A DNA stretch of 64,000 bases from Escherichia coli (GTDB lineage Bacteria; Pseudomonadota; Gammaproteobacteria; Enterobacterales; Enterobacteriaceae), in the NCBI RefSeq assembly GCF_003334355.1, contig NZ_QOWP01000006.1; one strand, written 5' to 3'. The position numbers and the translations under genes were made by a program. Positions 34,147 to 49,215 of the stretch are shown here, piece by piece; positions within the stretch are counted from its first letter, which is position 1; every line of letters starts with the position of its first letter. The notes under the pieces are model-generated. The model ran no database searches and was not told where the DNA came from. It worked only from the letters and a program-made list of their open reading frames with translations.

Positions 34147-35196
34147 ATGAAAATCAGTCGGGAAACACTCCACCAGCTAATTGAGAATAAACTCTGCCAG
34201 GCTGGGTTAAAACGTGAGCACGCTGCAACCGTGGCTGAAGTATTGGTTTACGCCGATGCCAGAGGGATCCACTCTCATGGCGCGGTGCGCGTGGAATACT
34301 ACGCGGAACGCATTTCAAAAGGCGGCACCAACCGCGAACCGGAGTTTCGTCTTGAGGAAACCGGGCCGTGCTCGGCAATTTTACATGCCGACAATGCCGC
34401 CGGACAGGTCGCGGCGAAAATGGGTATGGAACATGCCATCAAAACCGCCCAGCAAAATGGCGTTGCGGTGGTCGGTATCAGCCGGATGGGTCACAGCGGC
34501 GCAATCTCTTATTTTGTGCAGCAGGCAGCCCGCGCCGGATTCATTGGCATTTCGATGTGCCAGTCCGATCCAATGGTGGTGCCGTTTGGCGGCGCGGAAA
34601 TTTACTACGGTACTAACCCCCTGGCCTTTGCCGCGCCGGGAGAAGGCGACGAGATCCTTACCTTTGATATGGCGACTACCGTACAGGCATGGGGAAAAGT
34701 GCTCGACGCCCGCTCGCGTAATATGTCTATCCCGGATACCTGGGCGGTCGATAAAAACGGTGTACCAACAACCGATCCGTTCGCGGTACATGCTCTGCTC
34801 CCCGCCGCCGGGCCAAAAGGGTATGGCCTGATGATGATGATTGACGTCCTCTCAGGCGTCTTACTCGGCTTACCGTTCGGGCGACAGGTTAGTTCGATGT
34901 ATGACGATTTACACGCAGGGCGTAATTTGGGGCAATTACATATAGTTATTAATCCGAACTTTTTCTCCTCCAGCGAATTATTCCGTCAACATCTTAGCCA
35001 GACCATGCGCGAATTAAATGCCATTACCCCCGCGCCCGGTTTTAACCAAGTTTATTATCCCGGACAGGATCAGGATATTAAACAACGCAAAGCCGCCGTC
35101 GAAGGCATCGAAATTGTTGATGATATTTACCAGTATTTAATTTCCGACGCGCTTTATAACACGTCATACGAAACGAAAAATCCCTTTGCGCAATAA
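34147..35196 (+). CDS. allD: ureidoglycolate dehydrogenase
   Basis: 349 aa, Ldh_2-family. Confidence 0.85.
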   Translation: MKISRETLHQLIENKLCQAGLKREHAATVAEVLVYADARGIHSHGAVRVEYYAERISKGGTNREPEFRLEETGPCSAILHADNAAGQVAAKMGMEHAIKTAQQNGVAVVGISRMGHSGAISYFVQQAARAGFIGISMCQSDPMVVPFGGAEIYYGTNPLAFAAPGEGDEILTFDMATTVQAWGKVLDARSRNMSIPDTWAVDKNGVPTTDPFAVHALLPAAGPKGYGLMMMIDVLSGVLLGLPFGRQVSSMYDDLHAGRNLGQLHIVINPNFFSSSELFRQHLSQTMRELNAITPAPGFNQVYYPGQDQDIKQRKAAVEGIEIVDDIYQYLISDALYNTSYETKNPFAQ

Positions 35197-35295
35197 TTAT
35201 TGAGACAGGACTTTCTTATGATTACACATTTTCGTCAAGCCATAGAAGAAGCGCTGCCCTAGCTTTCCTCATTTGGCGCTGACCCAACGGGTGGG

Positions 35296-36453
35296 ATGAC
35301 CCGTTTACTTTATTCGCCGGAATGGCTGGAAACCCAGCAGCAATTTAAAAAAAGAATGGCAGCAAGCGGGCTGGAAACACGTTTCGATGAAGTGGGGAAT
35401 TTATACGGTCGCCTGAGTGGCACCGAATATCCACAGGAAGTGGTTCTGAGCGGTTCGCATATCGATACCGTGGTTAACGGCGGTAACCTCGACGGGCAAT
35501 TCGGCGCGCTGGCGGCGTGGCTGGCAATTGACTGGTTGAAAACGCAATACGGCGCGCCGCTACGTACGGTCGAAGTGGTGGCGATGGCAGAAGAAGAAGG
35601 CAGCCGCTTCCCGTATGTCTTCTGGGGCAGTAAAAATATCTTTGGGCTGGCGAATCCTGACGACGTGCGGAATATCTGTGATGCCAAAGGAAATAGTTTT
35701 GTCGATGCGATGAAGGCTTGCGGATTTACTCTGCCGGACGCCCCGCTAACTCCGCGTCAGGATATTAAAGCCTTTGTCGAACTGCATATCGAACAGGGCT
35801 GTGTGCTGGAAAGTAATGGGCAATCAATTGGCGTGGTGAATGCAATTGTCGGGCAACGTCGCTATACGGTGACGCTGAACGGCGAATCAAACCATGCAGG
35901 CACCACGCCGATGGGTTATCGTCGTGATACGGTTTACGCTTTCAGTCGCATTTGCCATCAGTCGATCGAAAAAGCGAAAAAGATGGGCGACCCGCTGGTT
36001 CTGACCTTTGGGAAAGTAGAGCCGCGCCCGAATACGGTGAATGTGGTGCCGGGTAAAACCACGTTCACCATTGATTGTCGTCATACCGACGCCGCCGTGC
36101 TGCGTGATTTCACCCAACAGTTAGAAAACGACATGCGGGCGATTTGCGATGAAATGGACATTGGTATTGATATCGATTTATGGATGGACGAAGAACCCGT
36201 GCCGATGAATAAGGACCTGGTCGCCACCCTGACAGAATTGTGTGAAAGTGAAAAACTGAATTACCGGGTGATGCACAGTGGTGCCGGGCACGACGCGCAA
36301 ATTTTCGCGCCTCGCGTGCCGACCTGCATGATTTTCATTCCCAGCATCAACGGGATCAGCCATAACCCGGCGGAACGCACCAATATTACCGACCTTGCCG
36401 AAGGGGTCAAAACGTTGGCACTCATGCTTTATCAACTTGCCTGGCAGAAATAA
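35296..36453 (+). CDS. allC: allantoate amidohydrolase, longest uninterrupted frame (upstream native-looking start at 35218 is cut off by an in-frame TAG)
   Basis: 385-aa ORF from an internal Met; ATG at 35218 with 14 sense codons then TAG at 35260-35262, same frame. Confidence 0.8.
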   Translation: MTRLLYSPEWLETQQQFKKRMAASGLETRFDEVGNLYGRLSGTEYPQEVVLSGSHIDTVVNGGNLDGQFGALAAWLAIDWLKTQYGAPLRTVEVVAMAEEEGSRFPYVFWGSKNIFGLANPDDVRNICDAKGNSFVDAMKACGFTLPDAPLTPRQDIKAFVELHIEQGCVLESNGQSIGVVNAIVGQRRYTVTLNGESNHAGTTPMGYRRDTVYAFSRICHQSIEKAKKMGDPLVLTFGKVEPRPNTVNVVPGKTTFTIDCRHTDAAVLRDFTQQLENDMRAICDEMDIGIDIDLWMDEEPVPMNKDLVATLTELCESEKLNYRVMHSGAGHDAQIFAPRVPTCMIFIPSINGISHNPAERTNITDLAEGVKTLALMLYQLAWQK

Positions 36454-44812: not shown

Positions 44813-46594
44813 TTATTCATAGTGCATGAAGCAGGTTTCAGTCGGTGCGTCCGCTGCGTTATCGGCGATATCTTCAAATTCCATGACGTTATCCAGTTCG
44901 CTGCCCATCGAAATATTGGTCACACGCTCGAGAATAACTTCCACGACTACCGGTACCCGATATTGCGCCATTAAGGCTTTCGCCTGTTCAAAGGCTGGCG
45001 CAATATCTTCCGGTTTGAAGACCCGAATAGCTTTACAACCTAAACCTTCCGCTACTTTTACGTGGTCAACACCGTAGCCATTCACTTCACTGGAGTTGAT
45101 ATTCTCGAAAGCGAGTTGCACGCAGTAGTCCATGTCAAAAGCGCGTTGTGACTGACGAATCAGGCCGAGATAGGCGTTATTCACCAGCACATGGATGTAC
45201 GGAATGTTGAACTGCGCGCCAACGGCTAACTCTTCAATCAGGAACTGGAAGTCAAAGTCGCCAGAAATCGCCACCACATTGCGTTTCGGATCAGCGGCAC
45301 AAACCCCCAGCGCCGCCGGAATCGTCCAGCCTAACGGACCAGCCTGACCACAGTTGATCCAGTGGCGGTCTTTAAAGACATGCAGCATTTGTGCCGCAGC
45401 GATTTGTGACAAACCAATGGTGGTGACATAGCAAACATCGCGACCAAAGGCTTTGTTCATCTCTTCATACACGCGCTGCGGTTTCACCGGCACGTTGTCG
45501 AAATGGGTTTTGCGCAGCAAAGTGCGTTTGCGCTGCTGGCAGTCGGCGACCCATTCTTTACGACACGGCAGACGACCCGCTTTTTGCATCTCCTGCGCCA
45601 CTTCAACCAGCAGTGTCAGCGCCGCTTTAGCATCAGAGACAATGCCGAGATCCGGACACAGCACGCGACCAATTTGCGTCGGCTCAATATCGATATGAAC
45701 GATTTTGCGCCCTTCGGTGTATTTCTCTACCGAACCGGTATGACGGTTAGCAAAACGGTTACCGATACCAAACACCATGTCGGACGCCAGCAACGTTGCG
45801 TTACCGTAACGATGCGCGGTTTGCAGACCCACCATCCCGGCCATCAGTTCATGATCGTCCGGGATACAGCCCCAGCCCATCAGCGTTGGGATCACCGGAA
45901 CGCTGGTCAGTTCAGCAAACTGTTGTAACAGTGCAGCTGCGTCAGCATTAATTACCCCGCCCCCGGCAACAATCACCGGACGTTCGGCCTGGATTAACAT
46001 TTCTACAGCTTTTTCGATCTGCATACGGCTGGCAGCAGGTTTGTAGACCGGCAGCGGTTCGTACATGTCAGGATCAAACTCGATTTCCGCAACCTGAACG
46101 TCGAACGGTAAATCCACCAGTACCGGACCCGGACGACCAGAACGCATCAGGTGAAATGCCTGTTGCAGCACGCGAGGCACCAGCGCCGCTTCACGAACTG
46201 TAACCGCCATTTTGCTGACCGGTTTAGCAATTGCTTCAATATCTACGGCCTGAAAATCTTCTTTATGCAGACGGGCGCGCGGTGCCTGGCCGGTAATGCA
46301 CAGAATAGGAATGGAATCAGCAGAAGCGGAATAGAGCGCGGTGATCATGTCCGTGCCCGCAGGACCGGAAGTCCCCAGACATACGCCGATATTTCCTGCC
46401 GTTGCGCGGGTATAACCTTCCGCCATGTGCGAAGCACCTTCCACATGACGCGCCAGAATGTGACGAATACCGCCGTGCTTACGCATCGCTGAGTAGAACG
46501 GATTGATTGCAGCTCCCGGAACACCGAAGGCGGTGGTGATACCTTCTTTCTCCAGCACATACATTGCCGCGTCAACGACTCTCATTTTTGCCAT
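44813..46594 (-). CDS. gcl: glyoxylate carboligase
   Basis: 593 aa from [18 protein letters not shown]; ThDP-enzyme family. Confidence 0.9.
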
Positions 46595-46614
46595 TTTATT
46601 CCTACCTCTATTTA

Positions 46615-46631
46615 TTGGAAAATTTTTCCAA
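46615..46631. promoter_or_regulatory. AllR operator in gcl promoter
   Basis: Perfect palindrome TTGGAAAATTTTTCCAA just upstream of gcl. Confidence 0.6.
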
Positions 46632-46646
46632 CTTTCAAATTTTGTC

Positions 46647-46671
46647 AAAAAAACCCGCTCCGCAGAGCGGG
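46647..46671 (-). terminator. Rho-independent terminator after allR
   Basis: Minus strand: CCCGCTC..GAGCGGG hairpin followed by TTTTTTT. Confidence 0.65.
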
Positions 46672-46683
46672 ATGCGACAGACA

Positions 46684-47499
46684 TTATGGATGTGCTTTCA
46701 GTCCCAACGCCGTGCTGATATCGCGGGCGGTGTCTCTGACCAGCTCACCCTGACTGACAAAACGATCTTCTGTCAGTCTTGATGAAGGCCCGGAGATGGA
46801 GATAGCGGCAACAACACTACCGACATCATCGTAAATTGCTGAAGCTATGCAATTCAGACCTACAACATGCTCTTCTTTATCTACGGTATAGCCCAGTTCA
46901 CGCGCTTGTTCCAGGTCCTTCAGCAAGGTGGGCATATCCACAAGCGTAGTTGGCGTAAACTGCTGCAAACCGGTTTGCAGAATGATGCTCATCAACTCCT
47001 CTTCCGCCAGCGGATAAAGCAGCGCTTTGCCCGCACCGGAAGCATGCAGTGGCAGACGACTGCCCAGTGGCGCACACATCCTGACCATCGATTTACACTC
47101 TAACTGACCAATTAATACCGCTTCATTGCCGTTACGGATCGCGACATTGACCGTTTCGCCGGAAAGTAACATCAGGCGGCGCATAAACGGCCCGGCGACG
47201 GAGAGGACATCGCGGTTATGGATGTACGCCGCACCGACGTTAAAGACACCTAATCCTATATGCCACCAGCCTAATTGACTGTCCTGATAGACAAAATCCG
47301 CTGCCTGTAAAACCTTCAGCAAGCGAAAGGTCGTGGAGAGCGGCAAATCCAGATTGAGAGAAATATCGCTAACCGACGAACTTCCCCCACTTTTTTCCAA
47401 ATATTGCAGAATCGCAATTCCCCGCTCTAACGCCTGTGCGCCCTTCTGTGCCACAGGCTCCGCCTGTCCTGGCCTGCCGCGCCGTCTAACTTCCGTCAT
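46684..47499 (-). CDS. allR: IclR-family allantoin regulon repressor
   Basis: 271 aa, IclR architecture. Confidence 0.9.
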
Positions 47500-47576
47500 A
47501 CCTACGTTAACTCCGACCTACAAGTGAGCATAAACAATGAACAATTAGTTTATCTTATGCAAGTCGGTTGCAGGCG

Positions 47577-48059
47577 TCACGCAAAACAGAGTTCCTGTTC
47601 AGGAATACTTTCAACATCACAGTTGTCACTGCCGCCGCGATCGATGGTCAGAAAATCGGTGACGCGCTGCCAGGCGAAAAGTGGGTGATGCCAGACGTTA
47701 CGATGGTAATTCACTCCCTGTTCGCCGTTGGTGATAAACGCCCGCAGCGTTGACAGGTCTGGTTTGTCGTCACCTAACGCCACGACCACCACAAACACCT
47801 CACCTTTCATCGGGATAAAGGCCTGAGTACCCAGCGGATGACGTTCGAGTTCGTGAATGGTCAGCGGCAGATTCGCCGGTTGCGCGCGGTTAATGCTGAT
47901 AAGCGTACGGTCTTGCTCAAGAATCTCAACCAGCGCCAAATCGTGGTAACGCTCCACCAGGCCATTGTTAATATGGAAAAAATCCCGTTGCTGCGTTTCG
48001 ATTACGTCGCCATAAGCACTAAAGGCTTCCTGACTTAACGGTAATACCTGAAGTTTCAT
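47577..48059 (-). CDS. allA: ureidoglycolate lyase
   Basis: 160 aa, synteny. Confidence 0.9.
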
Positions 48060-48164
48060 CTTTTTGTCCTTGTAACATAATTCCGTTCAACCACCGCCGA
48101 CCGGTCAGCTTGGTTTCAATAACAGGCAATCTAAAACCTTAAGAGAACAACATCAATACAAAAG

Positions 48165-48181
48165 TTGGAATATTTTTCCAA
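48165..48181. promoter_or_regulatory. AllR operator in allS-allA divergent promoter region
   Basis: Palindrome TTGGAATATTTTTCCAA, near-identical to the gcl site. Confidence 0.6.
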
Positions 48182-48288
48182 AACTAGATTTAGTCCACAA
48201 ATTGAACAGGGTTATCATGTAAAAATACTGATAAATCAGAGGATAAGAAAATCACGCAACTTGCGGATTTAAAAGGGGATACCTGAAG

Positions 48289-49215
48289 ATGTTCGATCCA
48301 GAAACCTTGCGGACTTTCATTGCGGTTGCTGAAACAGGAAGTTTTTCAAAAGCGGCAGAACGATTATGTAAAACCACGGCGACGATCAGTTATCGCATTA
48401 AACTTCTGGAAGAGAATACCGGAGTAGCGCTGTTTTTCCGTACGACTCGCAGCGTGACGTTGACAGCGGCTGGCGAGCATCTACTTTCCCAGGCCAGAGA
48501 CTGGCTGAGCTGGCTGGAAAGTATGCCAAGCGAGCTGCAACAGGTGAATGATGGCGTGGAACGCCAGGTGAATATTGTCATCAACAACCTGCTCTACAAC
48601 CCCCAGGCCGTCGCCCAGTTGCTGGCGTGGCTGAATGAGCGTTACCCCTTTACCCAGTTTCACATCTCCCGACAAATCTATATGGGCGTCTGGGACTCGA
48701 TATTGTACGAAGGTTTTTCGCTGGCTATCGGCGTCACGGGAACTGAGGCGCTGGCAAATACCTTTAGTCTTGATCCCTTAGGATCGGTGCAATGGCGCTT
48801 TGTCATGGCGGCGGATCATCCGCTGGCGAACGTTGAAGAGCCGCTAACAGAAGCGCAGTTGCGGCGCTTTCCGGCGGTCAATATTGAAGACAGCGCCCGC
48901 ACCTTAACCAAACGCGTCGCCTGGCGATTGCCAGGGCAAAAAGAGATTATTGTTCCCGATATGGAAACGAAAATCGCCGCCCATCTGGCGGGCGTTGGCA
49001 TTGGTTTTTTGCCAAAATCGCTTTGCCAGTCAATGATCGATAATCAACAACTGGTCAGCCGGGTAATCCCAACGATGCGCCCTCCTTCGCCATTGAGTCT
49101 GGCATGGCGCAAATTTGGCAGCGGCAAAGCGGTAGAAGATATTGTGACCTTGTTTACCCAGCGCAGGCCGGAAATCAGCGGATTTTTAGAAATTTTCGGC
49201 AACCCACGCAGTTAA
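48289..49215 (+). CDS. allS: LysR-family activator of allD operon
   Basis: 308 aa LysR-type HTH N-terminus. Confidence 0.85.

Follow-up and report, generated by a model that had tools for sequence, protein, structure and literature searches.

The two 17-bp palindromes upstream of gcl and in the allS/allA intergenic region are almost certainly operators of the IclR-family repressor AllR, whose own gene lies between them; this assignment is based on sequence comparison, and AllR binding itself is taken from the literature. They were found in a stretch of 64,000 nucleotides of an Escherichia coli strain, called the window here, which contains the whole allantoin cluster in reverse orientation relative to K-12 MG1655. 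As had been proposed in the initial annotation, the sites coincided with AllR operators: their sequences are identical to those of K-12, the 37-nt site printed in PMC13300388 is centred on one of them, and both agree with the motif and the sites listed in PMC8222616. AllR operators at gcl and at allS/allA are already catalogued in E. coli; the finding is correct but ordinary, with little significance beyond correct annotation.

First, the sequences were analyzed. Direct readout placed both palindromes exactly where the initial annotation had put them (Table 1). Sites 1 and 2 are identical at 16 of 17 positions and differ at position 7 (A versus T). Site 1 is a perfect 8+1+8 palindrome that reads TTGGAAAAATTTTCCAA in the direction of gcl, while site 2 has one asymmetric central pair, with T at position 7 against T at position 11. 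The common centre had been written as AWTTT, which is off by one position; since the sites differ at position 7, WATTT is correct.

A scan of the 64 kb for TTGGAA-N5-TTCCAA returned these two matches only, and still only two when up to two mismatches were allowed. The exact pattern was found in none of 100 dinucleotide-preserving shuffles. Chance alone would give 3.14 matches with up to two mismatches in the window, so that such matches are not rare and not significant by themselves; therefore, the evidential weight lies in exactness and placement. At three mismatches, 21 matches were obtained, which is the background level, and most of these were intragenic. Further sites of the AllR type with up to two mismatches were not found in the window. 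The repeat search (minimum length 10) did not report the palindrome arms, which are too short for this setting. It is scarcely credible that the two matches arose by chance in A/T-rich intergenic DNA, although a two-mismatch pattern alone would permit it: both lie within promoter regions under AllR control, of which only these two are known, and the same positions are conserved in 10 other genera. The chance reading was rejected on the basis of the shuffles and the cross-genus conservation.

Table 1. Coordinates of the operators, genes and predicted promoter elements in the window.
Feature	Position	Strand	Remarks
Predicted AllR operator, gcl operon promoter (site 1)	46615-46631		TTGGAAAATTTTTCCAA; K-12 533879-533895, identical
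Predicted AllR operator common to the divergent allS and allA promoters (site 2)	48165-48181		TTGGAATATTTTTCCAA; K-12 532329-532345, identical
gcl, first gene of AllR-repressed operon	44813-46594	-	intact
allR, IclR-family repressor	46684-47499	-	intact; nucleotide sequence 100% identical to K-12 b0506
allA, ureidoglycolate lyase, AllR-repressed	47577-48059	-	intact
allS, LysR-type activator of allDCE and allF, AllR-repressed	48289-49215	+	intact (role: PMC12535856)
allR intrinsic terminator, also that of AllZ	46654-46671	-	7-bp stem, 6 GC pairs, then TTTTTTT
Predicted allA promoter	48128-48156	-	-35 TTGATG 48156-48151, 17-nt spacer, -10 TAGATT 48133-48128
Predicted allS promoter	48189-48218	+	-35 TTTAGT 48189-48194, 18-nt spacer, -10 TATCAT 48213-48218
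Predicted gcl core promoter overlapping the operator	46609-46648	-	two alternative layouts
gcl layout (a), predicted		-	-35 TTGACA 46648-46643; A/T-rich -10 inside the palindrome (AAAAAT, 46627-46622)
gcl layout (b), predicted		-	-35 TTGAAA 46638-46633, -10 TAAATA 46614-46609; palindrome as spacer

Second, the placement of the sites was compared with the gene order. The 2.3-kb stretch around them matched 5,405 of 5,426 complete E. coli genomes, in which the genes are annotated as gcl, allR, allA and allS, and both control regions were 100% identical to those of K-12 MG1655. Site 1 follows the allR terminator and is located 20 nt upstream of the gcl ATG (46594, minus strand). The 229-bp intergenic region (48060-48288) between allA (minus strand) and allS (plus strand) has site 2 at its middle, with distances of 114 and 116 nt to the start codons of these genes. 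Both are thus located in control regions of known AllR targets, i.e., the gcl operon and the divergent allS/allA pair. The cognate allR is present and intact in the window, as are all AllR-controlled genes; its product carries the domains HTH_IclR and IclR_C (Pfam PF09339 and PF01614) and matches PDB 1TF1 (effector domain). In the list of open reading frames, gcl appears as a 623-aa frame (44813-46684, minus strand), which begins within the stop region of allR and extends across terminator and operator. The extension is an artefact of choosing the longest possible frame; gcl actually starts at 46594 and encodes 593 aa.

The same region encodes the small RNA AllZ (b4831; about 46647-46881, minus strand, corresponding to K-12 533629-533863), with a sequence identical to that of K-12. 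AllZ was identified from RIL-seq data (Hfq-associated RNA-RNA interaction) and is made from the 3' end of allR according to the K-12 annotation; northern blotting confirmed it (PMC8175672), and its transcription may start from an internal promoter. The terminator common to AllZ and allR abuts the gcl operator. In two human isolates, PSS-04 (NZ_AP027666.1) and PSJ-32-1 (NZ_AP027642.1), an IS1B insertion was observed within gcl-allR-allA-allS, which split the match into two pieces.

Protection or binding of the K-12 sites by AllR was reportedly described by Rintoul 2002, Walker 2006 and Hasegawa 2008. The AllR motif KTTGGAAWAWTWTTCCAAC is given in Table 1 of PMC8222616, citing Rintoul 2002. Site 2, read in the direction of allA as TTTGGAAAAATATTCCAAC, fitted this motif at 19 of 19 positions, and site 1 at 18 of 19 in either orientation. 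The supplement of the same paper lists, for K-12 b0506, 'allS -124 gTTGGAAtATTTTTCCAAA', 'allA -124 TTTGGAAAAATaTTCCAAc' and 'gcl -39 gTTGGAAAAATTTTCCAAt', and the window sequences were identical to all of these; orthologous AllR sites are also listed there for Klebsiella, Salmonella and Shigella. PMC13300388, again citing Rintoul 2002 as the original description of the regulon, prints a 37-nt 'AllR recognition site', AAATCTAGTTTTGGAAAAATATTCCAACTTTTGTATT. This is the reverse complement of window positions 48155-48191, with site 2 at its centre. A full-text search of the accessible literature for the operator strings showed that only PMC13300388 prints one, namely the allS/allA site; the gcl operator is printed in the comparative-genomics supplement of PMC8222616 only and in none of the main texts searched. 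Repression of gcl, allA and allS is assigned to AllR (PMC12535856, PMC11323563), and PMC12059191 reports ChIP-seq binding of AllR in K-12. The comparison with published AllR sites and the motif scan, by which the annotation was to be checked, showed that the sites coincide; no published AllR site mapping elsewhere was found in the accessible papers.

In addition, the operators were followed through 10 other Enterobacterales loci obtained by an AllR protein search. The AllR orthologues were 63-91% identical, ranging from 91% (Salmonella, Citrobacter) down to 63% (Pragia). The order allA-allR-gcl-hyi was kept in all 10 loci, full-length glxR was missing only in Izhakiella, and the divergent allS was kept in nine, with a GntR-type gene in its place in Pragia. 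A palindrome with zero to two mismatches was present at both positions in 10 of 10 loci, while the flanks diverged. On the gcl side, the distance from its end to the ATG was usually about 20 nt, and it was always preceded by the allR terminator, the hairpin and T-run of which were conserved in 11 of 11 loci; on the allA side it was located about 100-130 nt upstream of allA. Elsewhere in the roughly 110 kb of the 10 loci, no match with one mismatch or fewer and only three with two mismatches were found.

The column information was 1.84-1.91 bits for the arms, compared with 0.64-0.89 bits for the 30-nt flanks. As a by-product, the alignment gave a clean cross-genus footprint with the core TTGGAAAAWTTTTCCAA, in which GGAA/TTCC was invariant apart from one TTCC-to-TTTC change (Izhakiella) and the centre was 96% A/T. 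Since the arms lack covariation and most substitutions are one-sided, the conservation of the arms is, as judged from the alignment, the signature of a protein-recognition site and not of a structured RNA. Hairpins in RNA or DNA, for instance as a structure of the 5'-UTR or as a terminator, were weighed on the same evidence. Each repeat can form a stem of 6-8 bp, and the gcl transcript could begin right at the gcl site. However, the stability of these hairpins is low (-4.4 to -6.5 kcal/mol) and does not significantly exceed that of shuffled sequences (z -0.95 to -1.75), and neither repeat is followed by a T-run. Over the 11 genera, the arms are invariant without covariation, and the substitutions that do occur mostly break the pairing on one side (GTGGAA..TTCCAA, TTGGAA..TTCCAT, TTGGAA..TTTCAA). 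Moreover, the allS/allA site lies upstream of both predicted promoters, so it is probably untranscribed. The RNA-hairpin reading was rejected because of the weak stems and the lack of covariation, and it is given practically no chance of being correct.

Several loci showed additional features near the operators. In Pragia fontium (locus L012), a GntR/UTRA regulator gene (3188-4396) replaces allS, and the palindrome on the allA side is perfect (TTGGAAAATATTTCCAA at 4256). Rahnella (L008) has two palindromes in the allS-allA region, at 4277-4293 and 4310-4326, 33 bp apart. Copies with three mismatches were observed 17-18 bp upstream of the gcl site in Buttiauxella (L007, 5854) and Pragia (L012, 5896). 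The extra copies in these three genera may derive from a former tandem arrangement for binding of a tetramer, which E. coli lacks. Furthermore, a block TGTG..(7-8 nt)..ATCTnnTT (window 48185-48199) immediately flanks the operator on its allS side. This block was kept across loci L003-L012, even in Serratia, Yersinia and Pragia, and may represent the -35 region of allS, an extension of the AllR footprint or a site of another factor.

Since the operator of the paralogue IclR has almost the same consensus as that of AllR and IclR also responds to glyoxylate, it was considered whether IclR is the main or an additional protein that binds to the palindromes. Among the paralogues of AllR with a solved structure, IclR is the closest (1TD5 and 2O99, E about 1e-44), and the IclR box TGGAAATNATTTCCA (PMC8222616, Table 1) has two mismatches to the gcl site and three to the allS/allA site. 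However, these mismatches fall at the central positions that separate the IclR and AllR motifs, and a match to the IclR box with three mismatches is at chance level in the 64-kb window (3.06 expected). The sites neighbour gcl, allA and allS and not aceBAK or iclR. In every genus examined they occur together with an allR gene placed directly between them, and the literature gives repression of the gcl, allA and allS promoters to AllR. Binding by IclR is therefore very unlikely, and cross-binding is not needed to explain the sites.

In order to place the operators relative to transcription initiation, promoters were predicted from conservation and simple sigma-70 scoring across 11 species (Table 1); their exact overlap with the operators is accordingly a matter of prediction. 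The allA pair was the top-scoring one at the same offset, with similar hexamers, in 8 of 11 species and ranked lower in Pragia. The allS pair was present at the same position in five species (K-12, Salmonella, Citrobacter, Izhakiella and Buttiauxella), and this predicted promoter is weaker-supported than that of allA. The two predicted promoters are mirror images about site 2, with each -35 hexamer starting 8 nt and each -10 hexamer 31 nt from the palindrome. The centre of site 2 would thus lie near -52 of both back-to-back promoters, upstream of both -35 hexamers. A position near -52 is unusual for a repressor and is not a classical position for occlusion; repression would need a footprint longer than 17 bp. 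The 37-nt site just reaches both predicted -35 hexamers, although its source terms it a recognition site and not a protected region. A by-product of this analysis is the picture of a single operator that would be placed symmetrically between two back-to-back promoters.

At gcl, the T-run of the allR terminator ends about 15 nt upstream of the operator, and the gap from the terminator to the gcl ATG is only about 55 nt. Therefore, any gcl promoter located there must overlap the palindrome. Sigma-70 scoring itself does not separate the two possible layouts; layout (a) seems likelier than layout (b) because it leaves room for a Shine-Dalgarno sequence. The promoter scan gave TTTCCA/TAAAAT as its sole match in the two regions, and this candidate was rejected for gcl as its -10 hexamer overlaps the gcl ATG. 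A RutR site in front of the gcl operon is mentioned in one review; a match to the RutR box with up to three mismatches was not found upstream of gcl in the window.

From this arrangement, the following regulation may be proposed. In an AllR dimer, each subunit would read one TTGGAA arm with its helix-turn-helix, and in the absence of glyoxylate AllR would occupy both sites. The gcl operator would overlap the core promoter, either as spacer or at the -10 hexamer, so that RNA polymerase would be excluded in either layout and the operon gcl-hyi-glxR-allW-allB-ybbY-glxK would be shut off. At allS/allA, one repressor bound to the single operator midway between the back-to-back promoters would silence both genes. 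Glyoxylate would free AllR from its sites and thereby de-repress the glycerate branch and allS, and AllS would then activate allDCE and allF. The effector response is taken from the literature, where glyoxylate is stated to lower AllR binding and allantoin is reported as a co-repressor that strengthens it.

An extension of this scheme concerns cooperation between the two sites, which are 1,550 bp apart from centre to centre and flank allA and allR. AllR has been reported to be a tetramer in solution. Since each E. coli target nevertheless has one dimer-sized palindrome, an AllR tetramer might bridge both operators or, as a milder variant, IclR might cross-bind these boxes; taken together, these ideas are regarded as improbable. 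If bridging occurred, a repression loop would enclose allA-allR and couple the repression of gcl, allA and allS, while cross-binding by IclR would link the glyoxylate shunt to allantoin catabolism. Among the genera, the distance between the operators ranged from 1,548 to 1,663 bp, a spread that neither helps nor hurts looping at such a length.

The only broken gene of the allantoin cluster in the window is allC, in which a single G-to-A exchange at 35261 changes codon 15 (35260-35262) from TGG to the amber codon TAG. Over 35140-35400, none of 5,426 complete E. coli genomes was identical to the window, and the best matches differed by one base; in genome H13, the best match that was aligned, this was the G-to-A exchange at 35261 and nothing else. 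The amber codon is either a sequencing error or a very recent change confined to this strain. The gene belongs to the AllS-activated allDCE operon and is not directly controlled by AllR (PMC12535856); the allDCE promoter is without an AllR operator. The initial annotation had taken the operators to show that the regulatory architecture is conserved even though allC is damaged. It is true that allC is damaged and that the operators are kept, but the statement is uninformative and carries no evolutionary weight. Since the nonsense mutation is one private G-to-A change, there has been no time for regulatory decay, and since AllR still has functional targets, its operators are expected to be conserved, and their conservation is silent on whether regulation persists after gene loss. 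Conservation despite the damage to allC should thus be viewed with caution and is no evidence of selection.

The AllR sites can be compared with three known systems. The TtgV-operator complex (PDB 2XRO), which involves the same protein family, offers a structural model for an IclR-family tetramer on an extended operator. The TtgV operator spans about 40 bp and contains two imperfect palindromes in tandem, whereas the AllR targets of E. coli have one clear 17-bp palindrome each; Rahnella alone had a clear second palindrome nearby, and Buttiauxella and Pragia had weak copies. The IclR operator of aceBAK/iclR likewise has TGGAA-N-TTCCA arms and an A/T-rich centre, and it is read by an IclR-family dimer or tetramer that is dissociated by glyoxylate. 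It differs from the AllR sites in its central bases (2-3 mismatches) and its target genes, and the 17-bp AllR site has an extra outer T/A. The AllR operators of K-12 at gcl and allS-allA (PMC8222616) are identical to those of the window base for base, with the same genes, the same spacing to the start codons and the same intervening allR. Relative to K-12, the strain shows only scattered coding SNPs and the private allC amber codon, while the operators are without difference. Thus, apart from the private nonsense mutation in allC, the strain retains an AllR switch of the K-12 type for the catabolism of glyoxylate and allantoin.
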